NCBI GenBank assembly: GCA_965243175.1
Contig: OZ251532.1
Location: forward strand, 2,041,464 to 2,105,463
Reading direction: 5' to 3'
DNA length: 64,000 bases
From: Candidatus Azotimanducaceae bacterium
Lineage (GTDB): Bacteria; Pseudomonadota; Gammaproteobacteria; Pseudomonadales; Azotimanducaceae
The position numbers and the translations under genes were made by a program. The notes beneath the pieces are model-generated. The model was not told the DNA's origin and ran no database searches. It saw only the letters and a program-made list of their open reading frames with translations. Below, one piece after another: positions 221-18,497 of this stretch (positions within the stretch are counted from its first letter, which is position 1; every line of letters begins with the position of its first letter).

Positions 221-234
221 GCGCTTGGCGGACG

Positions 235-1250: not shown

Positions 1251-1260
1251 ACTTGCCCCC

Positions 1261-2382
1261 GTGTCCATGCGCGACAAGTCTAACGCAGCGGCGGAGCGAA
1301 GCGGTCTCGCGCCGCCGTGCTTCGCGGAACGGCTGCTCGCTTGGTGGGACGTGCATGGGCGCAAGAATCTGCCTTGGCAGAAGCAGCGCTCGCCGTATCG
1401 GGCGTGGGTTGCGGAAGTGATGCTGCAACAGACCCAGGTGAGCGTGGTGATCCCCTACTTCGAGCGGTTCGTGGCGCGGTTCCCGACTGTCGGCGCGTTG
1501 GCGGATGCCGAACTCGACGACGTGCTGCATCTGTGGAGCGGCCTCGGCTACTACGCCCGTGCTCGCAATCTGCATCGTGCAGCGGGAGTCGTCGTTCGGG
1601 AACATGGCGGGGCGTTGCCGAGGTCGGCAGAGGGCATCGCGGCGTTGCCCGGAGTCGGTCGTTCCACCGCTGCGGCCATTGCCGCCCAAGCCTACGGCGA
1701 ACGCGCCGCCATTCTGGACGGCAACGCGAAGCGCGTCCTCGCTCGGTGTTGGCGGGTGGCCGGCGCAGCGTCTTCGGCGGCGACCAACAAGGCGCTGTGG
1801 GAACTCGCGGAAGCCTGCACGCCAGCGGACCGCGTGGCCGACTACACGCAGGCCATCATGGACTTGGGCGCGACGGTGTGCGCGCGACGCAATCCGCGTT
1901 GCGGCGAATGCCCCATGGAGGACGCCTGCGCCGGGCGGGCCGAGGGCGATGCCGAGCGGTTTCCGATGCCCGCGGTGCGCCGCTCGAGGCGTTTGGAGCG
2001 GCGGCGCTTTTTCGTCTTGATCGACGCCCGGGGCGACTGCTTTCTGGAACGTCGTCCGCCGCATGGGATCTGGGGCGGGCTGTGGTCGCCGCCGGAGCGT
2101 TCCGCGTCCACATCGGCGGTGGAGTTTCTAACGGGCCTTGGCGGCGATGAGCGACTGGTGCGCCGAACGCGGGTGGCACCGTCCTTCAAGCATGGCTTCA
2201 CCCACTACGACTTGGACGTGCGGCCGGTTTATGTGTGGCTGAAAGCGCGGCCGGGGCTTGTGGGCGATCGCGAGGGAGCGTGGATCGATCCCGCCGATCA
2301 TCGACTTGGCCTTTCCGCTGTTGCGGCTAGACTCTTGGCCGCGGCCGCCACCTTCCGACTGGAGCCGAACGATGGAACGTAG
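1261..2382 (+). CDS. mutY: A/G-specific adenine DNA glycosylase
   Basis: LLAWWDVHGRKNLPWQ, PYRAWVAEVMLQQTQV, GLGYYARARNLH, PGVGRSTAAAI, and an Fe-S cluster loop CxxRNPRCGECP. Confidence 0.93.
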   Translation: MSMRDKSNAAAERSGLAPPCFAERLLAWWDVHGRKNLPWQKQRSPYRAWVAEVMLQQTQVSVVIPYFERFVARFPTVGALADAELDDVLHLWSGLGYYARARNLHRAAGVVVREHGGALPRSAEGIAALPGVGRSTAAAIAAQAYGERAAILDGNAKRVLARCWRVAGAASSAATNKALWELAEACTPADRVADYTQAIMDLGATVCARRNPRCGECPMEDACAGRAEGDAERFPMPAVRRSRRLERRRFFVLIDARGDCFLERRPPHGIWGGLWSPPERSASTSAVEFLTGLGGDERLVRRTRVAPSFKHGFTHYDLDVRPVYVWLKARPGLVGDREGAWIDPADHRLGLSAVAARLLAAAATFRLEPNDGT

Positions 2383-2644
2383 CGTCTTCTGCAGAAAGTA
2401 CCAGCGGCAACTGCCCGGCCTCGACGCGCCGCCGCTGCCGGGTGCTGCTGGCCAGGACCTCTTCGAGAACGTCTCCGCCAAGGCATGGCGGGAGTGGCGG
2501 CACTTGCAGACCATGCTCATCAACGAACACCACCTCTCGATGGCCGACCGCAGCGCACGCGAATACTTGAGCGAGCAGATGCGGCTCTTTCTCGCCAACG
2601 AGGAGTACGAGAAGCCGGCCGGCTACGTGCCGGAGGGCGAATAG
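2372..2644 (+). CDS. yggX: Fe(2+)-trafficking protein YggX
   Basis: MERSVFCRKYQRQLPGLDAPPLPG...WREWRHLQTMLINEHHL. It sits in the classical position downstream of mutY, with an 11-nt overlap. Confidence 0.9.
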   Translation: MERSVFCRKYQRQLPGLDAPPLPGAAGQDLFENVSAKAWREWRHLQTMLINEHHLSMADRSAREYLSEQMRLFLANEEYEKPAGYVPEGE

Positions 2645-2780
2645 GGGTCTTCTCCTACATGCGAAAGCAGGGATTTCCTACATCCGGCCGGGCCAATCTC
2701 TCTAGAATCGGCGTTTCCGGCTGGCCAAGCTATGTGCCTCGCTACACTTCGCGGCTTGGCGGTCATGGTACGGTTGAAGC

Positions 2781-3617
2781 ATGAAAACGCAGCGCCAGTA
2801 CGAGATCAACGGCACCCGCGTTCGTCGTCCGGTTCGGCCCAGCGCCAAGGCCGACGACGGTCTGTATCGCTACGTGCCAGTGCCGCCCGTGGGCTACGAC
2901 GAAGACGGATACCCCGTTGAGGACGGCATGTCGCAGAACCGAGACCATCAGCGGCAGACCTCGCACTGGTGCAGCGCGCTCACGCTGCGCTACCCGAACG
3001 CGACGGTGTGTTCGGACCTGATCATGCCCTACGAACGCGGCGACAAGGAGAAGGTGGCGGTGCCGGACCTGTTGGTGGCGCTGAATGCGCCGCTGGATGT
3101 CCATCGGCGCTCCTACAAGCTCTGGGAGAACCCGACGCCGGACCTGGTGATGGAGATGATCTCGCCGGACAGCACTTGGAAGGACGATGTCGGATCGAAG
3201 TACCGCACCTACCAGATGCTCGGCATTCGCGAGTACTGGCTGTTCGATGCGACCGGCAAACGCCTAACCGCGCCGGTGGTCGGCTACCGGCTGTGCGGCA
3301 AGGTCTATCAGGAGATCTCGGAGACCGAAGGGCGGCTGGAGAGCGAAGTTCTGGGTCTCGACCTGTATGTGCGCAACGGCGAACTGCGATTCCACGACCC
3401 AGAGACGGGGAAGGATCTGACGACCCACGCAGAGTCCGAGGCCCAACGAGATACCGCTGAGCAACAAGCCCAAGACGCCAAACGAGAAGCCCAGAACGCC
3501 AGGCGAGAAGCCCAAGACGCCAGACGAGATGCCCAGTCCGCCGAACAACGAGCCCAGACCGCCGAAGACGAGGTGGAACGCCTGCGGGTGCTGCTCGAAC
3601 AGAAGGAATCCAAGTAG
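2781..3617 (+). CDS. Uma2-family (DUF820) PD-(D/E)XK endonuclease with a C-terminal coiled-coil tail
   Basis: PDLLVAL...PDLVMEMISP...K..Y...GIREYWLFD core, followed by LRFHDPETG and a heptad-repeat tail (AQDAKREAQNARREAQDARRDAQ). Confidence 0.8.
   Translation: MKTQRQYEINGTRVRRPVRPSAKADDGLYRYVPVPPVGYDEDGYPVEDGMSQNRDHQRQTSHWCSALTLRYPNATVCSDLIMPYERGDKEKVAVPDLLVALNAPLDVHRRSYKLWENPTPDLVMEMISPDSTWKDDVGSKYRTYQMLGIREYWLFDATGKRLTAPVVGYRLCGKVYQEISETEGRLESEVLGLDLYVRNGELRFHDPETGKDLTTHAESEAQRDTAEQQAQDAKREAQNARREAQDARRDAQSAEQRAQTAEDEVERLRVLLEQKESK
3466..3570 (+). repeat. About five imperfect 21-nt tandem repeats (unit like gaagcccaagacgccagacga) encoding the heptad tail of the Uma2 protein
   Basis: Direct reading of 3466-3570. 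Confidence 0.6.
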
Positions 3618-3705
3618 CGGCCCTGCGCTCTCGGTGCCGCTTCCACGCTGCGGCTGGCTTCCCACATGTCGCCAACCCCTCGGCAGCTGGGCCGGCGCAC
3701 TGCCC

Positions 3706-6069
3706 TCACCTTCCGACGACGCCGCTGCCCACGAGTTGCTCCACCTCGCCAGCCGGCAACTTCAGCAGGTCGTGAAGCACACCCTCGGTGTGTTCGCCCA
3801 GCAATGGCGAGCGGCGAACCGCCGGGCGTTCGCCTTCCACCAGCACCGGCAAGCCGGTGTAGCGCCGGGTGCCGGAGGTCGGATGCGCGAGCGCTGGGAA
3901 GAACGACGTCTCGCTCGTCGCCATGTCGTCGCCGGTCACCACGCGGGAGGCGTGTACGCCAGCAGCGCGCAGGGCGGCTTCGGCATCTTCGACGGCCAGT
4001 TGCCGCGCCCACTCGCCGAGGGCCTGATCAATCGCAGCCGCGTTCGCGATGCGTCCGGCCAAAGAGCGGAACGACGCGCCAGCCAAGCGCTCGTCGGCAA
4101 CCACTTCGGCAACCTCTTGCCACTGCGCGTCGTCCTCCACCGCCAAGGCGAGCCAGCGTTCGCGCCCTTCGCCATCGTCGGCGCAGCGATAGCAGCCGTG
4201 CGGCGCCATGTCGTGGCTGCCGTTGCCTAGCGGCACGACATCCTCCGCGGCGTAGAACTGCTGCACGTAGCGGTCGCCGATGAGAAACGCCGCGGCTTCC
4301 ACTTGCGTGGCGTCGATGAAGCAGCCTTGGCCGGTTCGATCACGACGCATCAATGCCGCCAGCAACGGCACCAGCGCCTGCTTGCCGGCGATGTGGTCCG
4401 GGTGGTTCAGCGTGGTGCCCACTGGGAAGGGATCGTCGGGGTGCGACCACTGGTGGGTCACGCCGGAGAAGGTTTGCAGGTTCGGGCCGTAGGTTTGGAA
4501 GCCGTCGTAGGGGCCGCTCCCCAGCCCTTGGCTGCCCAGGTAGACGACGTCCGGGCGGATCGCCTTGGCACCGCCGTAGTCCAACCCCCAGCGCGCGACC
4601 ACCGAGCCGCGCATGTTCTCCATCACGATGTCGCATTCGGCGGCGAGTCGCTGCACCACCGCCACGCCTGCCGGCTTCGACATGTCCACCGCCAGGCTGT
4701 GGACGCCGAGGTTGAGCTGGTTGAAGGTGGGGCTGTTGTTGACGTCCATCGCGCCGGCCATGCCGTTGCGCCGCAGGAAGTCCACGTGGACCAACGATTC
4801 CACCTTGACGACTTCGGCGCCGAACAGCGCCAGCAGCGAGGCCGCTTCCGGCACCACCGCGCCGACGCCGAGTTCCAACACGCGCACACCAGCCAGCGGC
4901 GCCTCGCTGACGGCGGGTGCGTCGCTCGATGGCGTTGGGCGGCTGGCGGCTTGGGCTCGCGCCGCTTCGGTGTCGGCGCCGAGCGCGGGCGCGGGAGCGG
5001 GTTCGGCTTCGAGTTCCTGCGGCAACAAGCGCAGCGGCGTGCGCACCCGTTCCATCGCGCCGAACTCCGGGTCGTCCACTTCGCGGATGATCTGCCGAGC
5101 GCGAACGTGCGGGTCCTTGCGAAACGCGCTCAACGTGTTCACCGGCGAAATGGTCAGGCCCAGCCGCTGCCCTTCCATGAACAGGTCTTCGGTGGAACGC
5201 TCGCGGATCAGCTCGGCGCACAGGAGCTTCAGCGCGTCGGCGTTCTCGACCCGGAACTGCGGATCGCTGAACGGGCCGTCGACGATTGCCTCCGGTTCGC
5301 CGAGCAGCTTCACGAAGGCGGCCCACTGCTTCGGAGTGCCGGCCAGAATGCGCGCGTAGCCGTTCTGGGTTTCGTAGATGGGGAAGCCGTTGGGACCCAG
5401 TCGAGCGGTCAGCGTACCCTGGCCAGCGGCCTGCATTTCGTAGGCATGCAAACAGCGCGTCCACGGCGTGATGGCCGACACGGCGGCCTCGTGGTACGGA
5501 ATCTCGAACCGCGCGGTGCGTCGCCTCTCGCCCGCCCGCTGCGCTGCGAAGAGGCCCATCGCCGCCATCACCGCGGCGTAGACGCCAGCCCCGTCGAGCG
5601 CCAACCACGACGGCGCGTTGCACGGCGGCTGCTCCGGCCAGCCGCTGGACGCCATGCCGCCACTCGCCGCGAAGCCGACGATGGACGAGACGCCAAGCCC
5701 CAGTTCATCGGTCACCGTCGCCGCCACCTTCGGCTGCGCGCTCGCAACGCAATCGTGAAACGGCGAACGTTCCGCATCGAAGACGACATCCGCCTGCGCG
5801 CAGAGACCAAGCAGCAGGCGCTGGTCGTCGCCGCTCGCAGGGTCCAGCACGACGCTCTTCTTGCCCGCGTTGCGGGCGAGGAAGGCGATGCTGCCGCGAG
5901 TGGATTCGCCAGCGTTCGGAACACGCGGCAAGCGCCTGCGTGTCGCTCCGCCGCCCGGCGGCTCGACCAGCCAGACATCGGCACCCAAGCCAGCGAAAAT
6001 CAAGCCAGCGTATTCAGTGTGCGGGTGCGCGATCTCAACGACCTGCACGCCATCAAGCAAACCAGCCAT
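3706..6069 (-). CDS. Family III CoA-transferase (CaiB/BaiF type), two tandem transferase modules in one 787-aa protein
   Basis: N-terminal LDGVQVVEIAHPHTEYAGLIFAGLGADVWLVEPPGG and an internal LAGVRVLELGVGAVVPEAASLLALFGAEVVKVES both match the CaiB N-terminal signature. Confidence 0.85.
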   Translation of the reverse strand: MAGLLDGVQVVEIAHPHTEYAGLIFAGLGADVWLVEPPGGGATRRRLPRVPNAGESTRGSIAFLARNAGKKSVVLDPASGDDQRLLLGLCAQADVVFDAERSPFHDCVASAQPKVAATVTDELGLGVSSIVGFAASGGMASSGWPEQPPCNAPSWLALDGAGVYAAVMAAMGLFAAQRAGERRRTARFEIPYHEAAVSAITPWTRCLHAYEMQAAGQGTLTARLGPNGFPIYETQNGYARILAGTPKQWAAFVKLLGEPEAIVDGPFSDPQFRVENADALKLLCAELIRERSTEDLFMEGQRLGLTISPVNTLSAFRKDPHVRARQIIREVDDPEFGAMERVRTPLRLLPQELEAEPAPAPALGADTEAARAQAASRPTPSSDAPAVSEAPLAGVRVLELGVGAVVPEAASLLALFGAEVVKVESLVHVDFLRRNGMAGAMDVNNSPTFNQLNLGVHSLAVDMSKPAGVAVVQRLAAECDIVMENMRGSVVARWGLDYGGAKAIRPDVVYLGSQGLGSGPYDGFQTYGPNLQTFSGVTHQWSHPDDPFPVGTTLNHPDHIAGKQALVPLLAALMRRDRTGQGCFIDATQVEAAAFLIGDRYVQQFYAAEDVVPLGNGSHDMAPHGCYRCADDGEGRERWLALAVEDDAQWQEVAEVVADERLAGASFRSLAGRIANAAAIDQALGEWARQLAVEDAEAALRAAGVHASRVVTGDDMATSETSFFPALAHPTSGTRRYTGLPVLVEGERPAVRRSPLLGEHTEGVLHDLLKLPAGEVEQLVGSGVVGR

Positions 6070-6163
6070 GCACCCTCCTTGAAGCCCGAGCCCATCCTAC
6101 ACCCGAAGCGATGCGCCCACGTGGCAGTTACTGTCAATCGACTACTAATCACTGTCAAATTCA

Positions 6164-6996
6164 CTAGGGCGTGTTGACACTACTGCAGGGCATCGACGAT
6201 GAGCGCCAGATAGACGAACGAAGCGAAGACGACGTCCAGCTTGTCGTAGCGCGTGAATATCCGCCGGAACCTCTTCAGTCTCCCGAAGAGGCGCTCCACT
6301 TCGTTGCGGCGCCTGTAGATCCCCTTGTCGTAGTCCCACGGCTTCTTGCGGTTCTCCTTCGGCGGAACCACCGGCATCGCGCCCATCTCCTCCACCAGCG
6401 CCCGCGTCTCGTCGCCCTCGTACGCCTTGTCCATCGCCACGTTCTCCGCGGTCAGCGGAGTCGCCGCCAGCAGCTTCCTGCCCTCCGGCCTGTCTCCCGC
6501 CTGCCCGCCCGACAGCGAGAAGTTCACCGCCGTGCAGGCGTCCGCCGCGATCGCGTGGATCTTCGTCGTCCATCCCCCGCGCGACTTGCCGATGCTTTGC
6601 GCACCGTTTTTTTTAACGCCCCGGTCCCATCCGGATGCACCTTCACCAGCGTGCTGTCCAGCGACACCGTGTCCCCTTGGCCGCCGACCACCCCGAGCTC
6701 GCGCAACTCCTTGAAAATCGCTGCCATGACGCCCTTCTTCGACCACCGCTCCCAACGCCGGTACACCGTGTTCCACGGCCCGTAGCGCTCCGGCAGCGCG
6801 CGCCACTTGCACCCGTTCTCCAGCACGTAGAGCATCCCGTTGAGCTGCGTCAGCGGGTCGTGCTTCACGTTCCCCCGCGGCCGCGGCAGCACATGCTTGA
6901 TCTTCTCGAACTGCGACTCCGTGATCTCCATGACGACCTCCTTGTCGTCTCAAATCTCCACGCCAATGTACCACGCGTTATGTCAACACGCCCTAG
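6164..6996 (-). mobile_element. IS5-family insertion sequence (IS427/IS1031-like), about 0.83 kb
   Basis: Perfect 16-bp terminal inverted repeat: ctagggcgtgttgaca (6164-6179) and tgtcaacacgccctag (6981-6996). The outer CTAG could instead be a 4-bp target duplication. It encloses a two-frame transposase. Confidence 0.85.
6180..6931 (-). CDS. IS5-family transposase OrfAB, needs a -1 frameshift on an A8 run
   Basis: OrfA (6524-6931) reads MEITESQFEKIKHVL...GCKWRALPERYGPWNTVYRRWERW. OrfB frame (to 6180) reads ...GGWTTKIHAIAD...MDKAYEGDETR...RNEVERLFGRLKRFRRI. The frames join at the T8/A8 run 6607-6614 (GALKK|NGAQS). Confidence 0.85.
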
Positions 6997-7082
6997 CAAC
7001 TGCCTTGCACGCTATCGCGATCCAAAGCCGACGGGGCCGTCCGCCTGCGGAACGCAAACCCCGTTGACGCGCCCGGCGCCGA

Positions 7083-7288
7083 AGGAAACCTGGGCGCTGA
7101 CGATGCGCTGGCACGATCCGGCGACGGCCACGGACATCCCGGACTACGACCAGTCGCGGGCCGAAGCGCAGGCGGAGCGCACCCGGGCGGACGCGGTGGA
7201 GCACGAAGCGCGAGCCCGCACGGGAGCGGACCAGCGCAGGATCGCCGAACTGGAAGGACAGCTTCGGCGGCTGCGCGAGGGGCGTTGA
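7083..7288 (+). pseudogene. C-terminal fragment of a second Uma2-family gene (N-terminal part missing)
   Basis: TWALTMRWHDPATATDIP...AEAQAERTRADAVEHEARAR...IAELEGQLRRL parallels the LRFHDPETG plus coiled-coil tail of 2781-3617. The PD-(D/E)XK core is absent and the IS lies immediately upstream. Confidence 0.5.
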
Positions 7289-7322
7289 GTCCTCTGCGTG
7301 GCCGTTCAGCACGGCTGGCTCT

Positions 7323-7366
7323 TGCGCTTGACAAGCGCGTTGGGAGAGAGCACTCTTTGCGCCGTT
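7323..7366 (+). promoter_or_regulatory. Conserved about 44-nt box (copy 1) with TTGACA at 7328-7333, upstream of precursor A1
   Basis: tgcgcttgacaagcgcgttgggagagagcactctttgcgccgtt aligns with 10667-10710. The flanks are not conserved. Confidence 0.4.
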
Positions 7367-7481
7367 CAACTCGGCGAGCCGAGTGGCGAGTGCGCCGTGA
7401 GGGATGCGGCGCGGTGGCTGTTTTGGCAGCTAGGCCAGCAGCTGGGAGCAGCTTTCCTTAAATCAACGCGAGGAGTACGCT

Positions 7482-7684
7482 ATGAATTCCCCCCCCCCCC
7501 CCCCCCTCAGAAAGCCGAGGACGACAGCGGCGACGTAGCGCCGCACGAAGCCGCTGCGGCAGAAACCAAGAAGAAGCCGTGGTCGAGGCCGACCTTCCGC
7601 GCCATCGACGAAGTGACGATGTCGGCGAGTGCGCCGGCTCCCGACCTCGCTGAGAACACCGCTTACTATCCACTGTCGAACTGA
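7482..7684 (+). CDS. Putative RiPP (lasso-like) precursor peptide A1; the ATG frame and the conserved peptide frame differ by -1 inside a C18 tract
   Basis: SD GAGGAG 6 nt before ATG 7482, then the C18 tract. The conserved frame reads ...PPPPPPQKAEDDSGDVAPHEAAAAETKKKPWSRPTFRAIDEVTMSASAPAPDLAENTAYYPLSN* and is paralogous to 10810-11027. Confidence 0.6.
7489..7506 (+). repeat. Homopolymeric C18 tract
   Basis: Counted directly. Confidence 1.
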
Positions 7685-7750
7685 GTGGTGCGGCTAGCGG
7701 CTTCGGCAGCGGCTGGACTCCAGCAGCAACGCGGCCAGAGGCGGTCTGAG

Positions 7751-8782
7751 ATGCCGGCTTTCTATCGCGCCTATGGGTTGCGCGTGCGCTCCGAGGTGCC
7801 GCTGCCGTTCGATTCATTGCCGGCGCCTGTCCAAGATGCGGACGTCACGGTGCGCCTTGGCGACATTCCCGCCGAGCTTCCCGGCAGCGACGTCGTCCGC
7901 AAGGTGCGGTGGCAGGCCCGGCCTGGCGTCTTCCTCATCAAAGTCGAGGGCGTCGCTCGCTACTTGGTGGAGGGCGGTCGGGACATTACCGTGGCACCGC
8001 TTGGCGGCGACGATGCCGACATCGCCGCCTTCTTCGCCAACGCGCCCTTCGCAGTCCTCCTTCAACAGCGCGGCGTGCTCACGCTGCACTCCAGCAGCGT
8101 GGCGACCGGGGCTGGCGCGGCGTTGCTGCTCGGCGAGAGCGGAGTCGGCAAGTCCTCGCTGGCAGCGGCGCTCGTCGAGCGCGGCTTTCCGCTGATCGCG
8201 GACGACGTGACCGGGCTGGTCGCGGACGCAGACGGTCGCGTGACGGCGCTGCCCGGGTTCGCGAGCCTGCGGCTGTGGGCGGATACCTTGGACGAGATGC
8301 GCTGGCGAGGTCGCGGCGAGTCGAAGATGCGGCAGAGCATGGACAAGTACTGGATGCCCGTCGAACGCGCCCGCGCCACGCCGCTGCCGGTGCATGCCGC
8401 CTTCGTGCTGAAGGCCAACGGATCGAACGTCGACATCGATCCGATGCCGGAGCGGGACGCTTTCTCGCTGCTGTGGAGAAACACCCATCGGGCGCGGGCG
8501 ATGGGCGCGATCGGCAAGACGCAAACACGGTTCCGCACGGTCGCCGCGATGGCGCAGCGCGTCCCGGTAGCGGTAGCGACGCGGCCACGCCATCCGTTTC
8601 TGCTCGATGCGCTGGCGGACCGGGTTGCGGCGCTGCTTCCCGCGGCTTCGTTCTCCCGGGCCAGCGTGGCGGGACCGTGGCGCGACGTCCTGACGAAAGC
8701 CCAGGAGCGAGCGTTGACCAGCGCTCACGGCGAGGTGATGGCGCGGTTCGGCTATCTGCCGGACGCCGAATCGCCGGCGTAG
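7751..8782 (+). CDS. HPr-kinase-like P-loop kinase (HprK C-terminal-domain family)
   Basis: LTLHSSSVATGAGAALLLGESGVGKSSLAAALVERGFPLIADD is the HprK-type Walker A region. ORF 7685-8782 with ATG at 7751 preferred. Confidence 0.8.
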   Translation: MPAFYRAYGLRVRSEVPLPFDSLPAPVQDADVTVRLGDIPAELPGSDVVRKVRWQARPGVFLIKVEGVARYLVEGGRDITVAPLGGDDADIAAFFANAPFAVLLQQRGVLTLHSSSVATGAGAALLLGESGVGKSSLAAALVERGFPLIADDVTGLVADADGRVTALPGFASLRLWADTLDEMRWRGRGESKMRQSMDKYWMPVERARATPLPVHAAFVLKANGSNVDIDPMPERDAFSLLWRNTHRARAMGAIGKTQTRFRTVAAMAQRVPVAVATRPRHPFLLDALADRVAALLPAASFSRASVAGPWRDVLTKAQERALTSAHGEVMARFGYLPDAESPA

Positions 8783-8816
8783 GCATTTTCGACGCTTCGT
8801 GTACGCCGCAGCGTCG

Positions 8817-10661
8817 ATGGCCGCGATCTGTGGAATCCGCACTGCGGGCCGGGGCGGCAAGGCGGCGCTCGAGGCCATGCTGGGAACGCTTGCGGGAGCT
8901 GGCCCCGCGCACTCGGCTTGGCCGCAAGCGGCCATCGGCCTTGGCTGCCGCGAGACGGCGCTAGGCGAACCCGCGCTGGTCGCGGACGATGCCGCCGGCT
9001 TGACGCTGGTGGCCGACGCCCGCCTCGACGACCGCGATGGCCTTTGCGACGCGCTGGGCGTTCCAGTTGCCGAGCGCCGAGGCGTTGCCGATGCGCAACT
9101 GATTCTCCGCGCCTGGTCGCGCTGGGGCCGGGAGTGCCCGAACCACCTGCTCGGCGACTACGCCTTCGCGCTGTGGGACGCGCGGCGCCATTTCATGTTC
9201 TGCGCTCGGGACCACGCCGGCGCCCGGCCTTTCTACTACGCCCTGCCCAAGGACGGCATCGTCTTCGCGAGCGCCGTCGAACCGGTCCTCCGTGCGCCGG
9301 ACGTCGGGGACGCCTTGGACGAAGCCGTGGTGGCGACGCATCTTGCCAGCCGGCATTGCAGCGACACGCGCACGTTCTTCGCTGCAGTGCGCAAGCTGCC
9401 GCCGGGCCATGCGCTCTGCGTCGAATGGGCGCCGTCCGCGAACGGCACCGTGCAGCGAAAAAAGAGCCTCGCGCGTTACTGGCGGCCCGAACTGGCACCC
9501 GTGGCGAGACCAGCCGCCGACGACGAGTACGCCGAGCAGTTCCGCCACCTGCTCGCCCAAGCGGTGCGCGACCGGCTGCGCGGGTGCGATCCCGGCGCCA
9601 TCGGAACCCATCTGAGCGGCGGCCTGGATTCCTCCAGCATCGCGGTCGTCGCGGCCCGCGAGTTGCGCAGCCAAGGCCGTTCGCCGCCGCTCGCCTTCAG
9701 TTGGCTGCCGCAGCTGGGGGATGCGCCGCCCAAGGCCGAGTACGAGCGGGAGTACGCGCTGGTCGACGCGGTGTGCGCCCAGGAAGGCATCGAGGTCGTC
9801 CACGGCACGCCTTCGGCTGCGGACACCCTCGGCGTACTCGGCACCGACGGGGCGCTGCCCGGCATCCACCTTCACATCAACGAGGAGATCGCGCAACGCC
9901 ATGCCGCGGCCAGAGGCGTGCGTGTGCTGCTCTCCGGCTGGGGCGGCGACGAGTGCGTCTCGTTCAATGGCCGCGGGCATTGGCAGGAACTGCTCTTGCG
10001 TGGCCGCTGGCGGAAGCTCGCCGCCGAGTGTCGGGCGCAGGACGCCACGGCGCTGCGTTTCCTGGCGCACGTCGTGCTGCCGCTCCTGCATCCCGCGCTC
10101 GTGCCAGCGCTCGCCGGAAGCCGTAGCTGGCCGACCGCGAAGCGCTGGCTTATCGACCCCGCGTTCTCTCGCCGCGTGAAGCCGTTGGCTGCACCGGGAT
10201 GGCGAGAGATCGGAGTGCGCAGCACGCAGCTTCGGCTGCTGCAGGCCGGGCATCTGGTCGACCGCATCGAAGGCTGGGCGGCCAGCGGCGCCCGTCGAGG
10301 TATCGAATACCGCTATCCGCTGCTGGATCGCCGACTGCTGGAGTTCGCCCTGGGGCTGCCGCCCGAACAGTTCCGGCGCGGGCGCTGGAGCCGCTGGCTG
10401 TTCCGCCACGGCTGCCGCACGCTGCTGCCGCCGGAGGTCCGCTGGAATCGGCTGAAGGCCGACCCGGCGCGCAGCGAGACCACGCAGGACGCCTTCGTCG
10501 AGGCGTTCCCCGCGATCCGGCAGCGCCTCGCCGCCCGCACTCCGTCCCGCGCCCGCTACGTGGACGTGCAGCGCCTGCTCGAACGCCTGGACGCGGCGCG
10601 GTTCCACACCAAGCCGCAACCGGGGCCGATGATCAGGGCGCTGCAACTCCTCGATTTCTGA
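8817..10661 (+). CDS. Asparagine-synthetase-like protein (lasso-cyclase-like; Cys not at position 2)
   Basis: MAAICGI, LLGDYAFALWD, RDHAGARPFYY, PP-loop THLSGGLDSSSIA, LLSGWGGDE. An alternative GTG start is at 8799. Confidence 0.85.
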   Translation: MAAICGIRTAGRGGKAALEAMLGTLAGAGPAHSAWPQAAIGLGCRETALGEPALVADDAAGLTLVADARLDDRDGLCDALGVPVAERRGVADAQLILRAWSRWGRECPNHLLGDYAFALWDARRHFMFCARDHAGARPFYYALPKDGIVFASAVEPVLRAPDVGDALDEAVVATHLASRHCSDTRTFFAAVRKLPPGHALCVEWAPSANGTVQRKKSLARYWRPELAPVARPAADDEYAEQFRHLLAQAVRDRLRGCDPGAIGTHLSGGLDSSSIAVVAARELRSQGRSPPLAFSWLPQLGDAPPKAEYEREYALVDAVCAQEGIEVVHGTPSAADTLGVLGTDGALPGIHLHINEEIAQRHAAARGVRVLLSGWGGDECVSFNGRGHWQELLLRGRWRKLAAECRAQDATALRFLAHVVLPLLHPALVPALAGSRSWPTAKRWLIDPAFSRRVKPLAAPGWREIGVRSTQLRLLQAGHLVDRIEGWAASGARRGIEYRYPLLDRRLLEFALGLPPEQFRRGRWSRWLFRHGCRTLLPPEVRWNRLKADPARSETTQDAFVEAFPAIRQRLAARTPSRARYVDVQRLLERLDAARFHTKPQPGPMIRALQLLDF

Positions 10662-10666
10662 CGCAC

Positions 10667-10710
10667 TGCGCTTGACAAGCCGCACTGGGAAAGAGCACTC
10701 TCGCGCCGTT
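10667..10710 (+). promoter_or_regulatory. Conserved box (copy 2) with TTGACA at 10672-10677, starting 6 nt after the cyclase stop
   Basis: tgcgcttgacaagccgcactgggaaagagcactctcgcgccgtt aligns with 7323-7366. Confidence 0.4.
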
Positions 10711-10809
10711 GGACGCAACTTGAACGGGACCGTCGGGTAGCCGCAAGGCCCCGAGAGCAAGATCGGTCGAGAGGCCGATCTGCACACCCAAGCCAGCAGA
10801 GGCCACTCT

Positions 10810-11027
10810 ATGAATTTCCCCAATTTCCCCCCCTCCCCCCCCCCCCCCCCCCCCCCCCTGAGGACGACAACGACGGCGTAGCGCCGCGCGAGCCGTTAGC
10901 GGCAGAAACGAAGAAGCCGTGGTCGAAACCCACCTTCCGCCGTCTCGACGATAGGACCATGTCGCGAGTCGCAAGCGGGCCGCAACCGGAAACGAACGAG
11001 ATCGGCGTTTACAACCCAAACTCGTAA
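10810..11027 (+). CDS. Putative RiPP precursor peptide A2; again -1 out of frame across a C24 tract
   Basis: SD AGAGG 7 nt before ATG 10810, then C4, C7 and C24 runs. The conserved frame reads ...EDDNDGVAPREPLAAETKKPWSKPTFRRLDDRTMSRVASGPQPETNEIGVYNPNS*. That frame has no ATG, GTG or TTG between 10662 and 10958. Confidence 0.55.
10835..10858 (+). repeat. Homopolymeric C24 tract, preceded by C7 at 10827-10833
   Basis: Counted directly. Confidence 1.
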
Positions 11028-11069
11028 GTCGCGAAGCATTCATTGACGGACACAGCTCGAAGCGTCCCC

Positions 11070-11135
11070 ATGCAGGCTGCCTACTGCGCCTGCGGGTTGC
11101 GGGTGCGCTCCGACGTGCTGCTGAACTGGCCGTAA
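11070..11135 (+). pseudogene. 21-codon relic of a second HprK-like kinase gene
   Basis: MQAAYCACGLRVRSDVLLNWP* compared with the kinase N-terminus MPAFYRAYGLRVRSEVPLPFD (12 of 21 identical). It holds the same position relative to A2 as the intact kinase does to A1. Confidence 0.6.
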
Positions 11136-11147
11136 GGCGGGCGTCGG

Positions 11148-13043
11148 TTAGGACTTGCGGGCAAACCGGAGCGCGCGCACCGCCAGCGCGAGGAGGGCCA
11201 GCGCAATTGCGTACCACATCAGGAAGCCCAGGGAGAGGGTGAGGGCGGATTCCATCTCCAAGGCCAGTACCGCGAGCATGTGCGTGCCAGCCGCCAACGT
11301 CGCAGGGCAGGCGTCTGGATGGTGCAGGAGTTCGTGCAGGGCGCGATAGAGCAGGCCGAGCGCGACCATGCCGAGGAGCACGCCGGCGAGGCCGAAGTTG
11401 ACGTAGAACTCGCCGAGCTGATGCACCTTGAAGGCGCGCATCGTGTCCGGCGCCGTGAAGCCGTACCGAATCCCCAAGTCGCGCACGTCGCCCGGTTTCT
11501 CGGCGAAGACGGCGCGGGGGACGAGCTTGTAGAGGATCGGCAGATAGGTCTCGCCGTGCAGGAAGGGCAGCGGGTCGGGGGAGCGCACGGTGAGCCAGGC
11601 GAGGGGCAGCAGGTAGTCGAGGCGCTTGGCGGTCAAGTCCTCGGTGCGCATCGCGCCGCCTTCGCCGTCGAACGCCGCCGCCATCGTCTTCGCGTACAGT
11701 CCCGCCTTCTCCGCTAGGGAATCGTGCGCCTGCGGCGCTCCCGGGTTGCTGGGAATAGCGGCACGGAAGGGCGCGTCCGCGTGTTCGGCTGCGGCGACTT
11801 CGTGCGGGACGACTTGCTTCAGCCGCGACAACTCGATGCGAACGGCCACTATCGGATAGTCCGGCAGACGGAGGCTGGCGACGCAGCGGCCGTCTTCGAC
11901 GAGGCCGTCGCCGAAGGAGGTTCCCAAGGACTGGAAACTGCGGCGCCATCTGAGTTCGGGCAGGTCGCGTACGTCCACCGGATCGACGAACGCGCCGATT
12001 CGGAACGCCGGTTGGGCGCAGACTTCCGGGTCGTTGTGGGCGACGGTGAGGGTTCGGCCGCGAAGCGTTGCTTCGTAGGCAGGCGTGGTCAACGTCTGTT
12101 TCTCGCCGTCCGCCAGCACGAACTGGTGGGCGGCGACCGGCGAGGTCGCGTTCGGGCCCACGCCATGCGTCCAGATCAGCTGCCGGTACTCCAAGCGCGT
12201 GGGAATCAGCACGAAGAGGAGCGCCGCGGCGGTCACTGCGCCGAAGGCGATGCCGCGCCAAGTCGGCCTCGGTGCGACCACCGCGTAGGCCACGAACAGA
12301 GCGAACACCGCCTTCGCGCCGTGGTTCACCATCCCGGTGCTGAACCCCAGAACCGTGTAGTACGCGACCAACGCCGCCAGATAGAGCCGCCCGGCAACGC
12401 CAAGCTGGCCGCGCAAGTGCAGGTGGAAGCACACCAGCGCCGCGAACAGCACGAACTGCCCGGCGAGCGTCACCGGGAACGCGACCGCATCGGGCAGCAG
12501 CGTCTCCCCGGCGTACCGGGCGGCAACCGCCGCCTTGTCCAGATAGAAGAACGGCGCTGCGGCGAGGCCCACCACCACCGCGACCGCCTTGGCGAGCTGC
12601 GGATCGTCGCTCGGCAATATGCGGACGGTCGGCAGCGCGGCCCACGGTTTCCCGCCGGCGAACGCGAAGTAGCCCGCCATCAGGGCGGCCCATCCGCCGA
12701 GAGCCAGCATGAGCGCGTAGTCGATGGCGTCCGCTTCGAGCAGCGGCCGCGGCAGCCAAGCGCCGAAGAAGTCGACGCGCACGAAGACCGGCGCCGCGAA
12801 GCAGGCGGCGTAGAGGACGCCGACGTAGGGCATCGCCGAGTGTCGCCAACGCCGCCGTGCAGCCCACATGAGCGAAGGCGCCGCGCACAGGGCGATGAGC
12901 AAGCTCGCGAGCAGGCGCTGCAAGCCGGTCGGCTCGGCTGGCGCGTGGAGATTGAGGGCGACGATGGCCAACGCCACCAGAACCGCGACCGCCGCGAACA
13001 TCCGCCGCCCGTCGTCGAGTGCGCTTGCTGGTTTCTCTTCCAT
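11148..13043 (-). CDS. Polytopic membrane protein of unknown function (Wzy/O-antigen-ligase-like topology with a large soluble insert)
   Basis: 631-aa ORF with many hydrophobic helices at both ends and an insert of about 200 aa. The family assignment is a guess. Confidence 0.65.
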   Translation of the reverse strand: MEEKPASALDDGRRMFAAVAVLVALAIVALNLHAPAEPTGLQRLLASLLIALCAAPSLMWAARRRWRHSAMPYVGVLYAACFAAPVFVRVDFFGAWLPRPLLEADAIDYALMLALGGWAALMAGYFAFAGGKPWAALPTVRILPSDDPQLAKAVAVVVGLAAAPFFYLDKAAVAARYAGETLLPDAVAFPVTLAGQFVLFAALVCFHLHLRGQLGVAGRLYLAALVAYYTVLGFSTGMVNHGAKAVFALFVAYAVVAPRPTWRGIAFGAVTAAALLFVLIPTRLEYRQLIWTHGVGPNATSPVAAHQFVLADGEKQTLTTPAYEATLRGRTLTVAHNDPEVCAQPAFRIGAFVDPVDVRDLPELRWRRSFQSLGTSFGDGLVEDGRCVASLRLPDYPIVAVRIELSRLKQVVPHEVAAAEHADAPFRAAIPSNPGAPQAHDSLAEKAGLYAKTMAAAFDGEGGAMRTEDLTAKRLDYLLPLAWLTVRSPDPLPFLHGETYLPILYKLVPRAVFAEKPGDVRDLGIRYGFTAPDTMRAFKVHQLGEFYVNFGLAGVLLGMVALGLLYRALHELLHHPDACPATLAAGTHMLAVLALEMESALTLSLGFLMWYAIALALLALAVRALRFARKS

Positions 13044-13138
13044 GCCGTGTACCGGTGCGCGACGAAGGACTGTAGCGGTACCGCGTTTCGTGGCCCATGA
13101 TAGTCCGCCGAAGGTCTCTCGCCCGCGAAGCGCCTCCC

Positions 13139-13612
13139 ATGCCCGATTCCGGCAAACGCCTGCTCGTCGTCTACCACACGCAGACCGGACGCACCCGCGC
13201 CTTGGCCGAGGCGGTGCGCGAAGGCGCGGCCGACCCGGCCATCGAAGGCGTGGAACTGCGCGTGGTCACGGCGCGGGAAGCCGATGCGGAGAGCCTGCTC
13301 TGGGCGCAGGGGTTGCTGCTCGGCACGCCGGAGAACTTCGGCTACATGTCCGGCGGCATGAAGGACTTTCTCGACCGTACCTTCTACGCCGTGGAAGGCA
13401 AGCTCCAGCCGCTGCCCTACGCCATCTTCATCAGCGCCGGCAACGACGGGCGCGGCGCACTGCGAGCGATTCGGCGCATCGCTGGCGGCTACCCCTTCGT
13501 GGAAGTGCAGGAGCCGGTCATCGCCCGCGGCGAAGTGCGGGACTGCCATCTGCAAGCCTGCCGCGAGCTCGGGATGGCGCTTGCGGCGGGGCTGGAAGCT
13601 GGCATCTACTGA
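13139..13612 (+). CDS. Flavodoxin-like fold protein
   Basis: KRLLVVYHTQTGRTRALAEAV...LLLGTPENFGYMSGGMKDFLDR. Confidence 0.7.
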   Translation: MPDSGKRLLVVYHTQTGRTRALAEAVREGAADPAIEGVELRVVTAREADAESLLWAQGLLLGTPENFGYMSGGMKDFLDRTFYAVEGKLQPLPYAIFISAGNDGRGALRAIRRIAGGYPFVEVQEPVIARGEVRDCHLQACRELGMALAAGLEAGIY

Positions 13613-13746
13613 CGCGCCCGGAGTCGCGGTGTCCGCAAGTCTTGGGTGACGGAGGCTGGGAAAGCGGGCGTCCCGCCGCCGGCAGACGAGACGCCTGCGC
13701 TCCCAGGTTCGCCCCACGGCGCGGCTGAGCGCGTAAACTGGCGTCC

Positions 13747-14979
13747 ATGCCCGGCTTCACCACGTCCATCGTCCACTCGGATCGGCTCGATCCCATCGAG
13801 CACGGCTCGCTGCACAAGCCCGTTCACGCCACCGTCGCCTACGGCTACGAGGACGTGCAGGGCCTTGCCGACGTGTTCCAAGGCAAGAGTTCGGGCTACT
13901 CCTACGGGCGGCAGGTCAATCCCACCGTCTCCGCGCTCGAAGCGAAGATCAGCCGCATGGAGCGCGGCATCGCCACGGTGTGCTTCGGCACCGGCATGGC
14001 GGCCATCGGCACGACGCTGTTCGCGCTGCTGCGCAGGGGCGATCACTTCGTTTCCAGTTCGTTTCTGTTCGGCAACACCAACAGCCTGTTCCAGAGCTTC
14101 GCCGCGCATGGGGTGGAGGTGACGTTCGTGGATGCCACGCGCACGGACGCCGTGGCCGATGCGCTGCAACCGAACACCAGGCTGGTGTTCGTGGAGACCA
14201 TCGCCAATCCGCGAACCCAGGTGAGCGACCTGGCCGGCATCGGCGCGCTGTGCAAGGAACGCGGGGTCGTCTATGTGGTGGACAACACCATGACCTCGCC
14301 GTATCTGTTCCAGCCCGTGGCGGTGGATGCATCGCTGATCGTCAACAGCCTCACCAAGTACATCGGCGGCCACGGCAACGCCTTGGGCGGCGCGGTGACG
14401 GAAACCGGGCTGTTCGACTGGCGCGCCTTCGACAACATCTACGACACCTACAAGAAGGGCGACGCGAAGCGCTGGGCGATCACGCAGATCCGCAAGAAGG
14501 GCCTGCGCGATTTCGGCGCCGCGCTTGGGGCGGAGGCGGCGCACCACCTGGGGATAGGCGCCGAGACCCTCGCCTTGCGGCAGGAAAGGCAGTGCGACAA
14601 CGCGCAGGCGTTGGCGGATTTCCTGGCGGCGCACCGCAACGTTCGGCGCGCCTACTATCCTGGGTTGGCCGAGCACCCGGAGTGCGAAAGGGCGAAGGCG
14701 CTGTTCCGGCGCCCGGGCGGGCTGTTCAGCTTCGAGCTGGTCGACGGCATGGATGCGTTCGCGTTTCTCAATCGGCTCAGGGTGGTCGTCAAGTCCAGCA
14801 ATCTCGGCGACAACCGTACGCTGGCCATTCCCGTGGCGGAGACCATCTACTACGAGATGGGGCCGGAACGCCGCGCCAGCATGGGCATCGCGGATTCGCT
14901 GGTGCGCATCTCCACCGGCATCGAGGAAACCGACGACCTGCTCGAGGACTTCGCGCAGGCACTGGCGTCTGCGAAGTAG
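13747..14979 (+). CDS. Cys/Met-metabolism PLP enzyme (O-succinyl/acetyl-homoserine sulfhydrylase or cystathionine gamma-synthase family)
   Basis: GYSYGRQVNPTV, VCFGTGMAAI, VVDNTMTSPYLF, NSLTKYIGGHGNALGG (PLP lysine), SLVRISTGIEE. Confidence 0.9.
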   Translation: MPGFTTSIVHSDRLDPIEHGSLHKPVHATVAYGYEDVQGLADVFQGKSSGYSYGRQVNPTVSALEAKISRMERGIATVCFGTGMAAIGTTLFALLRRGDHFVSSSFLFGNTNSLFQSFAAHGVEVTFVDATRTDAVADALQPNTRLVFVETIANPRTQVSDLAGIGALCKERGVVYVVDNTMTSPYLFQPVAVDASLIVNSLTKYIGGHGNALGGAVTETGLFDWRAFDNIYDTYKKGDAKRWAITQIRKKGLRDFGAALGAEAAHHLGIGAETLALRQERQCDNAQALADFLAAHRNVRRAYYPGLAEHPECERAKALFRRPGGLFSFELVDGMDAFAFLNRLRVVVKSSNLGDNRTLAIPVAETIYYEMGPERRASMGIADSLVRISTGIEETDDLLEDFAQALASAK

Positions 14980-14994
14980 AGCGGAGGGAGTAAG

Positions 14995-17022
14995 ATGGCG
15001 CGTCCGAATCCGCACGGCGAAGCCATGACCACCTCCCGGCCCGAACTGTTCGGCCATCCGGCCGGCCTCTACACGCTGTTCTTCGCGGAAATGTGGGAGC
15101 GCTTCTCCTTCTACGGCATGAGAGCGCTGCTGCTCTTCTACATGATCAAGGGCTTCCTAGGCTACGGCGACAGCGAAGCCTACGCGGTCTACGGCGCCTA
15201 CACGGCGCTGGTCTATCTGACGCCGTTCTTCGGGGGAATGTTGGCGGACCGCCTGCTCGGCGCGCGGCGAGCGGTGATTCTGGGCGGCCTGCTGATGGCG
15301 GCCGGGCACTTGATGATGACGGTCGAGAACGACTTGGCCTTCTTCGCGGCGTTGGCGCTGCTGATCTGCGGCAACGGCTTCTTCAAGCCGAACATCTCGA
15401 CGATGGTGGGCGGCCTCTATCCGGTTGGCAGCCCACGGCGCGACGCGGGCTTCACGCTGTTCTACATGGGCATCAATCTGGGCGCCGCCATGTCGCCGCT
15501 GCTCTGCGGCTACATCGGCGAAACCTACGGCTGGCACTACGGATTCGGCTTGGCGACCATCGGCATGCTCACCGGCCTGGCGGTCTTCGTGGCGCCGCGC
15601 CGCGTGACGCAGGTGCTGATTCTGACCGGCGCGGGGGCTGGCGCGTTCGGCTTGTTCGTGTTCACGCCGGACAGCGGCCTGCAAATCGCCATCAATCTGA
15701 TCGTCGGCGCGGCTTTGCTGGCGGCGGGTCTCATCGCCTGCACGGCGCTTTCCCGTGGCGGCTTGCCGGAGGATGCGGGCGCTGCGCCGAACGTCGAACG
15801 ATTGCGAAAGCGGGTCTTCGGCGTCGTTTCCCAGGAGTGGCTGGTGTACCTCTGCACCTTGCTGGCGGTGCCGGTGGTGGTGCTGTTCGTGTCCGGCTTC
15901 TCGCCGTTCACTGGCGGCGAAGCGGTCTCTCTTCTGCCGAGCGCCTGGCTGGCGAACCTGCAAGCCGGCGGGACGCTTTCGCAAGTCGTGGCCGTGGTGG
16001 CCACGGAAATGAGCCGGCCAGCGGGACTGGTGCTGATGGTTTCCGGGGCGGTCGCGCTCGGCTATCTGGTGACGCAGACGGCGAAGCTGCCGAAGGTGCC
16101 GAGGGAGCGGATGTTCGTGGTGCTCATCCTGACTTTCTTCTCGCTGCTGTTCTGGGCCTTCTTCGAGCAGGCCGGCAGTTCGTTGAACAACTTCGCGGAC
16201 CGCAACGTGGACCGCGTGGCGGAAGAACGTGTCATTGGGACGGCGGACGTGGGTGCCACGCTGCGCCTGCAGCCCACCCAGGAACAGCTGGGCTACCGCA
16301 ACGGCGACGCGCTGTTCACGCTGGACGACTTGAACGCGCTGCGCGAACAACACGACGAGGCGGACTTCGAAATCGACTGGCTGGTGGCGGAAGACAACGT
16401 CGGCATGGGCGTGGGCGCGAGGGCGACGGAAACTCCGGCCAGCGTCTTCCAGTCGTTCAATCCAATCTACATTCTGGCGTTCGGACTGGCCTTCACGGCG
16501 CTATGGGGCTTTCTCGGCAACCGTGGGCGGGAACCGCCGACCCCCTACAAGTTCGCGCTGGGGCTGTTGCAGCTGGGGCTGGGTTTCGGCGCGTTCTGGT
16601 ACGGAGCGCAGATGTCGGACGAGCGCGGCATGGTGGCGCTGCAATGGCTTGCCATCGGCTATCTGCTGCATACCAGCGGCGAGTTGTGTCTCTCGCCGGT
16701 GGGGCTGTCGATGGTCACCAAGCTGGCGCCGGCGCGGCTGGTGAGCACGGTGATGGGCGCTTGGTTCCTCGCCACCGCGTTCTCGCAGTTTCTGGCGGCG
16801 ATCATCGCGCAGTTCACGGGGGTGACCGGGCCGGCGGACTCGGGGCAGGGCGTGCCGGCGCCTATCGAGACGGTGAACGTCTACGGCGGCGTGTTCGGGG
16901 GCATTGCCGTGATGGCCTGCGTTGCCGCGGTCGTCTGCTTCGCGCTTTCGCCTCTGCTTTCGCGTTGGATGCATGCGGAAGCGGACGCCGAGGAACCGCA
17001 ACCGGAGCGCGAAGCGGCCTAG
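14995..17022 (+). CDS. Proton-dependent oligopeptide transporter (POT/PTR2, DtpT-like)
   Basis: [60 protein letters not shown]. An alternative start is at 15025. Confidence 0.9.
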
Positions 17023-17175
17023 CGGGAACTTGGCGCGTCCAGCGCCGGGGCGGATTCGGCGCCGGAGGCTGCAATGCGGTAGTCGGCGTCGGCAGACTCC
17101 GCAGGGACGACGAACCCGTTGCTGCGGCCGCGTTCGGCGCAGCGACTCGTCGGCATCCGCGAAGGCAAGTAGAAG

Positions 17176-18426: not shown

Positions 18427-18497
18427 GGCCGTACAAGACGTTGCGCGGCGTTGCCGCGCGGCGTTACGATACCCGACCATTTTGCTCGGATTTGAGC

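Follow-up and report, generated by a model that had tools for sequence, protein, structure and literature searches.

The DNA considered here is a 64-kb stretch of contig OZ251532.1 from a Candidatus Azotimanducaceae bacterium (hereafter the window; G+C about 67%). At 7.3-11.1 kb it contains a locus that is a member of the kinase-tailored lasso family of ribosomally made peptides with post-translational modifications (RiPPs), in a new, dispersed arrangement. The locus holds two paralogous precursor genes, genes for an HPr-kinase-like kinase and for a lasso-type cyclase, and what is left of a second kinase gene, 21 codons long (Table 1). The paeninodin-type gene set consists of A, C, K, B1, N, B2 and D (PMC8498205), and the reading that we favour, with moderate confidence, is that the locus represents the A-K-C half (precursor, kinase and cyclase) of a split paeninodin-like lasso pathway, the B1-N-B2-D half being supplied in trans. 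As judged from gene content, the lineage to which the locus belongs shows this set often dispersed into separate A-K-C and B1-N-B2-D modules, and supply in trans in this particular genome would follow the same pattern. The lack of B genes in the window is most likely the result of gene dispersal rather than of new enzymology. The most original element of the locus is the long run of cytosines (poly-C tract) that follows the ATG of each precursor gene.

Table 1. Features of the locus and its left flank, in window coordinates
Feature	Coordinates	Strand	Remarks
Promoter-like element, copy 1	7323-7360	+	CTTGACAAGCGC...GAGCACTCT; TTGACA at 7328-7333; about 150 nt upstream of precursor ATG
Precursor, copy 1, frameshifted as assembled	7482-7684	+	ATG at 7482; Shine-Dalgarno sequence GAGGAG; peptide frame 7507-7684
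Poly-C tract of copy 1	7489-7506	+	C18 (poly-Pro codons); sets reading frame
HprK-like peptide kinase	7751-8782	+	343 aa; PF07475; weak TIGR04352 match
Lasso-type macrolactam cyclase (Asn-synthetase homologue)	8817-10661	+	614 aa; NF033535 best family
Promoter-like element, copy 2	10667-10700	+	TTGACA at 10672-10677
Precursor, copy 2, frameshifted as assembled	10810-11027	+	ATG at 10810, preceded by a Shine-Dalgarno sequence
Poly-C tract of copy 2	10827-10858	+	C7-T-C24
Relic of second kinase gene	11070-11135	+	21 codons (MQAAYCACGLRVRSDVLLNWP, then stop); aligns with kinase start
IS5-family insertion sequence (left flank, context only)	6168-6992	-	825 bp; DDE_Tnp_1; 12-bp inverted repeats (GGCGTGTTGACA); CTAG target duplication

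The cyclase and the kinase

The cyclase contains Asn_synthase and GATase domains with the PP-loop SGGLDS, and it begins MAAICGI, with no Cys at position 2. Its best match among the NCBIfam families is the lasso isopeptide cyclase NF033535 (342 bits, E 7e-102), a score below the narrow cut-off of that family (525 bits), and against AsnB (TIGR01536, cut-off 267 bits) it scores 165 bits. Since the cyclase of a canonical B1/B2 cluster, L014 (related loci are referred to by such numbers throughout), scores just 272 bits on NF033535, the sub-threshold score of the window cyclase is no argument against its membership. The window cyclase and its homologues start M-x-A-[IL]-C-G and the Cys, which is replaced by Phe in L010, is therefore not N-terminal. 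The family scores (165 against 342 bits) together with the missing Cys nucleophile rule out a bona fide AsnB. A preliminary description of this DNA, made from the letters alone, had read the gene as encoding an Asn-synthetase-like protein of about 614 aa with an intact PP-loop and no N-terminal Cys nucleophile, and was right on each point.

The kinase, which had been described as an HPr-kinase-like P-loop protein, does match Pfam Hpr_kinase_C (PF07475), with 34.3 bits where the cut-off is 33.3, and it carries the P-loop GESGVGKS; it also matches HprK-related kinase A (TIGR04352) weakly. An AlphaFold2 model based on an alignment of 98 homologues (mean predicted local distance difference test (pLDDT) 90.3) predicts that residues 1-85 form an all-beta N-terminal domain and that the protein also has a long helix and a P-loop domain; a run on 16 sequences gave a pLDDT of 45, and the model used here is that of the 98-sequence alignment. 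A Foldseek search with this model retrieved phosphoenolpyruvate carboxykinases (PEPCK; 6e-9) and HPrK/P (2e-6), but no structure resembling an RRE (RiPP recognition element). An initial alignment of 40 kinases was too diverse for scanning of the loci. Across the 98 aligned sequences K134 and D151 never vary, and the conservation of H113 and D152 is 90% or more. A His-Lys-Asp-Asp catalytic motif has been described in lasso-tailoring kinases (PMC9266682), and H113-K134-D151-D152 would fit this motif if our mapping of the residues is correct. The idea that an RRE might be hidden within the kinase was rejected: the predicted fold is of the PEPCK/HPrK type with no winged-helix RRE, and a B1 hidden Markov model (HMM) misses both the kinase and the cyclase open reading frames (ORFs).

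Precursor peptides and predicted cores

The peptide frame of copy 1 encodes ...KKKPWSRPTFRAIDEVTMSAS/APAPDLAENTAYYPLSN and that of copy 2 ...KKPWSKPTFRRLDDRTMSRVAS/GPQPETNEIGVYNPNS, where the slash marks the putative leader-core junction. The preliminary description had reported two paralogous small ORFs at these positions. That they are paralogous precursors was confirmed; that they are open was not, as the ATG of each lies out of the peptide frame, and the poly-C tracts with their frame problem had been missed. The spans measure 203 and 218 nt, neither of which is a multiple of 3, and they are therefore not ORFs. The ATG frames close after 18 codons in copy 1 and 23 codons in copy 2, and the peptide frames of both copies are without a start codon of their own near the tract. 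In both, one extra C or a -1 shift within the poly-C tract would link the ATG to the peptide.

Precursors of one design, frequently in multiple copies, are found in related loci, the exceptions being L002 and L056, in which no precursor was found. In the N-terminal part, Met and a few residues are followed by a Pro run, an acidic linker and the motif [KR]PW[ST][KR]Px[IFL]; in the C-terminal part, 8-12 residues lead to a [ST]/G-P junction, a Glu, an E-x-x-x-Y element and a Ser in the last three residues. Across the family constraint is tighter on the leaders than on the cores. The leader motif is invariant among the family precursors, takes the form WSRPTF and WSKPTF (WxxPxF) in the two window copies and matches the motif of lasso leaders to which discrete RREs bind, [Y/W]xxPx[LVIAFY], of which the Trp variant is typical of paeninodin-like leaders (PMC13381572).

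If cleavage takes place at the family-aligned junction, the core of copy 1 would start at Ala with a possible A1-E8 ring, Trp at -17 and a penultimate Ser (...PLSN), and that of copy 2 would start at Gly with a possible G1-E8 ring, Trp at -19 and the ending ...NPNS. Both putative cores have the expected Gly, Ala, Ser or Cys start and an Asp or Glu at 7-9. A Ser lies within the last three residues throughout the family (at the very end in copy 2, penultimate in copy 1), Tyr12 could be the plug in both cores, and the Glu falls 8-9 residues after the junction Gly in most family members and 10-11 in five. The site T-M/S, proposed by the earlier reader, occurs in both copies at a paeninodin-like Trp spacing of -14. 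Cleavage there would give an S1-D8 ring for copy 1 and no acceptor at 7-9 for copy 2, and the site is not conserved in the family. Thr thus stands at -2 of the T-M/S site in both window copies, but the family-aligned junction [ST]/G(A) has a variable -2 residue, with T in L007, L008 and L012.

Kinases of the PadeK/SyanK type have the C-terminal Ser as their target while the precursor is still linear (PMC8498205, PMC9266682), and the following sequence of events may be proposed for the window locus. A PqqD-type RRE (B1) encoded elsewhere would bind the precursor through the WxxPxF leader motif, and the HprK-like kinase would then phosphorylate the linear precursor on the Ser that is its last or penultimate residue. 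A B2 protease, also encoded elsewhere, would cleave at the conserved junction between a small residue and Gly or Ala (SAS/A in copy 1, VAS/G in copy 2). The cyclase would bond the conserved Glu8 to the N-terminus so exposed; the result would be a lasso of 16-17 residues with Tyr12 as the likely plug, and export would be via the ABC pump of an unlinked B1-N-B2-D operon.

It is very doubtful, in our view, that the products are not lasso peptides at all, being instead linear phosphorylated peptides (in relatives sulfated or glycosylated), with the Asn-synthetase homologue carrying out, for example, amidation or side-chain lactam formation. Linear polyphosphorylated peptides made with an HprK-like kinase provide a precedent (PMC13381572), inferred rings of 10-11 residues in some members are suggestive, and precursor and kinase units occur without a nearby cyclase in L001, L006 and L009. 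The best family of the cyclase is however that of the lasso cyclases, both window cores suit a 1-8 ring, and the canonical B1/B2/C clusters L014 and L062 have precursors of the same design.

Distribution of the B1, B2 and exporter genes

Homologues of the kinase (n = 116) come nearly all from metagenome assemblies. About 18 close loci (kinase 45-72% identical) lie in long-read metagenome-assembled genomes of uncultured Gammaproteobacteria, Pseudomonadales and Binatia, and the kinases of more distant relatives are 24-46% identical to that of the window. All-against-all clustering of the ORFs of the first 13 loci gave just two widely common families, the kinase (13/13) and the cyclase (10/13), and no alternative protease conserved across the loci was found in it. 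Accessory genes in the close loci encode GT8-sulfotransferase fusions, kinase-sulfotransferase fusions, Asp/Asn beta-hydroxylases and 2-oxoglutarate oxygenases.

Among distant loci of at least 5 kb, B1 and/or B2 lie within 10 kb of the kinase in 15 of 17. The corresponding figure for close loci is 2 of 16, each with one of the pair (B1 only in L007; only an NTP-transferase-B2 (N-B2) fusion, 7 kb away, in L012), and 14 have neither. The preliminary description had proposed asking whether syntenic loci ever carry B genes, and some do. L014 is a canonical cluster of precursor, cyclase, GT2, B2, B1 and a kinase fusion, and its precursor (..SL/GPTPGSLENFTFSYKSL) is of the same design as those of the window. 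In L056/57 and L062, which belong to the closer family, a few kb at most separate B2 and B1 from the cyclase and kinase. The precursor of L062 (..WTES/GETLGTFEHPPNYDLPLS) has a TES/G junction, G1-E8 spacing, Trp at -17 and a terminal Ser; its Ser/Gly leader-core junction is identical to that of loci without B genes, so that such a junction, unusual as it is, does not indicate a B-independent route. B modules standing by themselves were encountered as PqqD-NTP_transf_5-B2-ABC-exporter operons in L058 and L059-61, whose B2 is 69-76% identical to that of L012 and whose surroundings up to 10 kb hold no kinase, no cyclase and no recognisable precursor, and as an orphan NTP_transf_5-B2 pair (L063) from the same sample as a window-like contig. 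Completion in trans is favoured because the B1 and B2 genes of relatives are variously linked, partly linked or in orphan operons, and because L062 shares the Ser/Gly junction.

Several observations weigh against completion in trans. No PqqD/B1, Transglut_core3/B2 or ABC exporter gene was found anywhere in the 64-kb window by Pfam searches of 40 ORFs and by B1 and B2 HMMs run over all six frames. These models were iterated from 25 B1 and 16 B2 relatives and detect B1 in 24 loci and B2 in 16 other loci; an RRE or B2 within small or odd-frame ORFs of the window was rejected on the same searches. The absence of a leader peptidase, RRE or exporter that had been described for the neighbourhood of the locus is thereby extended to the whole window. 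Among the matches listed (120 of 2336; 120 of 810), which lack even the known N-B2 fusion of L012, there is no B2 from a window-like contig of 1,515,368 bp or from other large kinase-bearing contigs, and there is no case shown of both modules far apart in a single genome. L001, L006 and L009 have no cyclase within 10 kb. The inferred ring sizes across the family are 8-11, and copy 1 ends in Asn, not Ser. Known lasso rings are of 7-9 residues. Lastly, the frameshifts in both precursors, the reduction of the second kinase to a stub and the presence of an insertion sequence (IS) next door also fit decay.

Decay is the main rival explanation, although we consider it unlikely. The locus would then be a non-producing relic left after the loss of B1, B2 and D, with the frameshifted precursors as pseudogenes. 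Besides the out-of-frame ATGs, the kinase stub of 21 codons, the lack of B2 among the listed matches from kinase-bearing contigs and the IS with a possible Uma2 relic at the flank, this explanation draws on related loci that have themselves decayed (L054 and L007 hold cyclase fragments, L006 has a degenerate precursor and L003c a C7 frameshift). On the other hand the kinase and cyclase ORFs are intact with every catalytic motif present, and copy 2 is intact in a sister haplotype (L055). The frame defects are confined to hypermutable tracts and always require the same +1 correction, and the leader motif and promoter-like element have been kept between old paralogues that are 65-89% identical.

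The absence of both B1 and B2 within 10 kb in 14 of the 16 close loci could also be taken to mean that the system works without them, another protease cutting at [ST]/G and the cyclase acting in the absence of B1 and B2. The lack of a conserved Thr at -2 would agree with this, and the pseudomycoidin cyclase acts without a leader or leader peptidase (PMC6993621). Yet no part of the precursor is better conserved than the RRE-binding WxxP motif, the same junction is found in L062 beside B2 and B1, the orphan B1-N-B2-D operons need partners elsewhere, the kinase model has no RRE-like domain and no alternative protease is conserved in the loci, and we regard B-independent maturation as improbable. 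Equally speculative is a wider picture, which we offer with little confidence, of an uncultured marine-type Gammaproteobacteria clade with dispersed A-K-C modules, in which poly-C tracts turn a repertoire of lasso-like peptides (phosphorylated and, in relatives, sulfated, glycosylated or hydroxylated) ON and OFF and genomes without B genes mature their peptides without B1 and B2.

The original assignment to a lasso-type, kinase-tailored RiPP locus holds: the 614-aa protein scores higher on the lasso-cyclase model than on that of the AsnB enzymes (342 against 165 bits), homologous precursors adjoin both kinase and cyclase in many genomes, and two independent assemblies both lack a B1/B2 pair in the vicinity. 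Of the three options that had been put forward for the missing genes, completion in trans is favoured, decay is still to be reckoned with, and B-independent modification is the least supported.

Two related loci have a gene content that deserves separate mention. L007 (1-9639) contains a main cyclase and three cyclase-like fragments with a PqqD gene (6246-6623) directly upstream, and its lasso genes, duplicated and decayed, give it the appearance of a patchwork. In L001 (5747-9605) an in-frame poly-C precursor and its kinase are directly preceded by two ABC_tran genes (666 and 623 aa), which may be the dedicated exporter of that module.

Poly-C tracts in the precursor genes

The tracts of the two window precursors stand apart from the remainder of the window, in which runs of C or G reach 5 (44 runs), 6 (2) or 7 (1) nt and then just 18 and 24. 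Homopolymers of 9 nt or more number 17 in the 378 kb of close loci. Thirteen of these are coding-strand runs of C12-C24 that directly follow a precursor-type ATG; 12 belong to clear precursors and one to the degenerate precursor of L006. The 379 kb of distant loci have two, 9 and 10 nt long. Relatives without long tracts retain PPP at most, or nothing. Pro codons in the window genes are 61% CCG and 24% CCC, and the pure CCC runs therefore point to slippage at the DNA level rather than to selection for poly-Pro alone.

Seven long tracts are in frame as assembled (L001, L009b, L009c, L011, L052a, L052b and copy 2 of L055) and seven require an additional nucleotide (window copies 1 and 2, copy 1 of L055, L003a, L009a, L010a and L010b), while none requires the removal of one. 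Comparison with L055, the sister haplotype of the window (ENA ERZ26050812, ctg28254), showed that both tracts differ in length. For copy 1 the window has C18 and L055 has C15 (a difference of 3 nt), out of frame in both cases; for copy 2 the window has C7-T-C24 and L055 has C16 (17 nt), and the L055 gene is an intact ORF of 66 aa. There is thus a homopolymer at the 5' end of the coding region that sets the frame, its length differs between near-identical haplotypes, and ON and OFF states both occur, as at a contingency locus. This resemblance suggests a phase switch, in which the hypermutable tract after the ATG would gate translation of the precursor; both copies would be OFF as assembled here. 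Our searches of the literature found no report of homopolymer-switched RiPP precursors.

The one-sided bias towards +1 could reflect deletion-biased slippage, rescue by transcriptional slippage or -1 frameshifting, or under-calling of homopolymers in long reads. The last of these would make the frameshifts artefacts of assembly, the true tracts being in frame and long C runs being one base short in the long-read consensus, and we hold this to be a tenable explanation, if not the likelier one. It would account for the fact that all seven out-of-frame tracts (six if the copy-1 haplotypes are merged) need exactly +1 when seven others are in frame, and the names of the contigs appear to resemble those of metaMDBG or hifiasm-meta long-read assemblies. 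The tract differences between the window and L055 are, however, of 3 nt and 17 nt and not of 1 nt, and the short C7 tract in L003c needs +1 too.

In L006 (9209-9300) a C18 tract follows ATGAATAGAATAT and the downstream frames hold only a degenerate ..DKRP.. remnant with no WxxP peptide; this is probably a decayed precursor that has retained its tract.

The repeated module and its promoter-like element

The preliminary description had proposed that the precursor and kinase unit was duplicated and that a 21-codon relic of a second kinase gene followed the second precursor. Both proposals stand. The relic aligns with the first 21 codons of the intact kinase at 74% DNA identity, and the repeated unit takes in the peptide frame (67% identical) and also a promoter-like element, CTTGACAAGC...CACTCT (89% identical). 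With identities of this order the duplication is therefore old. The promoter-like element is the best-conserved piece of the repeat and occurs in L001 too. In a scan for the sigma-70 consensus it did not match, and it is without a TATAAT-like -10 box.

A CTTGACAAG(C) element is conserved 130-170 nt upstream of many precursor ATGs, giving a long 5' leader, and beyond the window it was seen in L001 (about 9607-9645), L052 (about 16295) and L009 (about 8931 and 10983). It may combine a -35 box with a site for a regulator. An Rfam search of the long 5' leaders matched no known RNA element.

Comparison with known systems

The closest likeness is to the paeninodin/pseudomycoidin-type clusters of Bacillota, which have a WxxP leader, an Asn-synthetase-like cyclase, an HprK-like kinase with the His-Lys-Asp-Asp motif and, as in copy 2 of the window, a C-terminal Ser on the precursor (PMC8498205, PMC9266682, PMC13381572). 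Relatives of the window locus also share with them an NTP-transferase beside or fused to B2 and an ABC exporter. The window family differs from these clusters in that A-K-C stands alone with B1-N-B2-D unlinked, in its hosts, which are uncultured Gammaproteobacteria and Binatia, in its predicted [ST]/G junction in place of Thr(-2)-x/, in the poly-C/poly-Pro tracts with which its precursors start, and in the sulfotransferase, GT8 and Asp/Asn hydroxylase genes that relatives of the window locus add.

Kinase-bearing lasso clusters of Proteobacteria, known from SyanK of Sphingobium yanoikuyae and from polyphosphorylated lasso peptides, come from the same phylum as the window. The distant relatives L022 and L030 carry the classic KKPYxxPxLxxYG...T-x/G leader; kinase relatives with such YxxP leaders share, however, no more than 24-46% identity with the window kinase, and in these distant loci B1 and/or B2 are usually at most a few kb away.

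The linear polyphosphorylated peptide (LPP) loci of Bacillota resemble the window locus in their HprK-like kinase, in their RRE-type leader motif and in forming a unit apart from lasso genes (PMC13381572). They are marked by a SipW-like peptidase, an RRE of their own, an NTP-transferase, an MsbA-like pump and a YxxPxVLxHQxIxFETxxS leader, and have no cyclase (PMC13381572). None of the LPP marker genes was found in the window, and the window leader is of the WxxP type without the LPP motif.

Contingency loci controlled by homopolymer tracts are the phase-variable genes of Neisseria, Haemophilus and Bordetella. In common with these, the window family has a long mononucleotide tract just inside the coding region that varies between near-identical genomes and is found in both frame states. 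It differs from them in that the tract sits in RiPP precursor genes, and the likeness is one between assembled sequences. If the tracts are true switches they would be the first contingency-type control of RiPP precursors in the literature searched, and one set of enzymes would serve a changing menu of peptides.

Genome mining for lasso peptides by RODEO- or antiSMASH-style rules expects B and C genes side by side. A lineage in which A-K-C and B1-N-B2-D are split would escape such rules, and with it a lasso chemistry that would include phosphorylated, sulfated and glycosylated products.

Sister haplotype and neighbouring genes

Within a block at about 6-12 kb the window and L055 are identical except for the IS, two single nucleotide polymorphisms and the two poly-C tracts, and the kinase and cyclase are 100% identical. 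Over window positions 1-19000 such identical blocks alternate with blocks that differ by about 4% (1-2000, 5250-6000, 12000-13750 and 15750-17500), which suggests that co-occurring strains often recombine with one another homologously. In view of the 100% identity a recent horizontal transfer of the locus was considered, and it was rejected as the mosaic of 0% and about 4% blocks is region-wide and not specific to the locus.

The IS that had been noted on the left flank is indeed present, and since it is absent from L055 the insertion is therefore recent. A truncated Uma2 gene had also been reported at about 6993-7290; a C-terminal Uma2 tail can be made out by eye, but tblastn gave no significant match. 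On the right flank the convergent membrane-protein gene of the earlier account was found and encodes 631 aa. It was rejected as a part of the system, being not conserved in related loci and having only a weak Wzy-like tail.

Uma2-family genes occur near lasso modules in the window (two full copies, 2781-3617 and 33934-34953), in L052 (14920-15681) and in L054 (13072-14127). A gene of the AAA-ATPase_like plus PDDEXK_9 type is present in the window (24107-25966, minus strand), in L007 (2272-3885) and in L062 (7310-9229). Genes of this type lie in or beside related lasso loci, in L062 between the kinase and B2, and may be mobile or selfish elements that help to fragment the clusters. A secreted-looking protein of 1378 aa with no Pfam match is encoded at 42297-46433 (minus strand) of the window; its equation with a Pfam-less ORF of 1372 aa beside the L054 kinase was dismissed when the two proved unrelated on comparison. 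A second transposase gene (DDE_Tnp_1 plus DDE_Tnp_1_assoc) lies at 51377-52675 on the minus strand.

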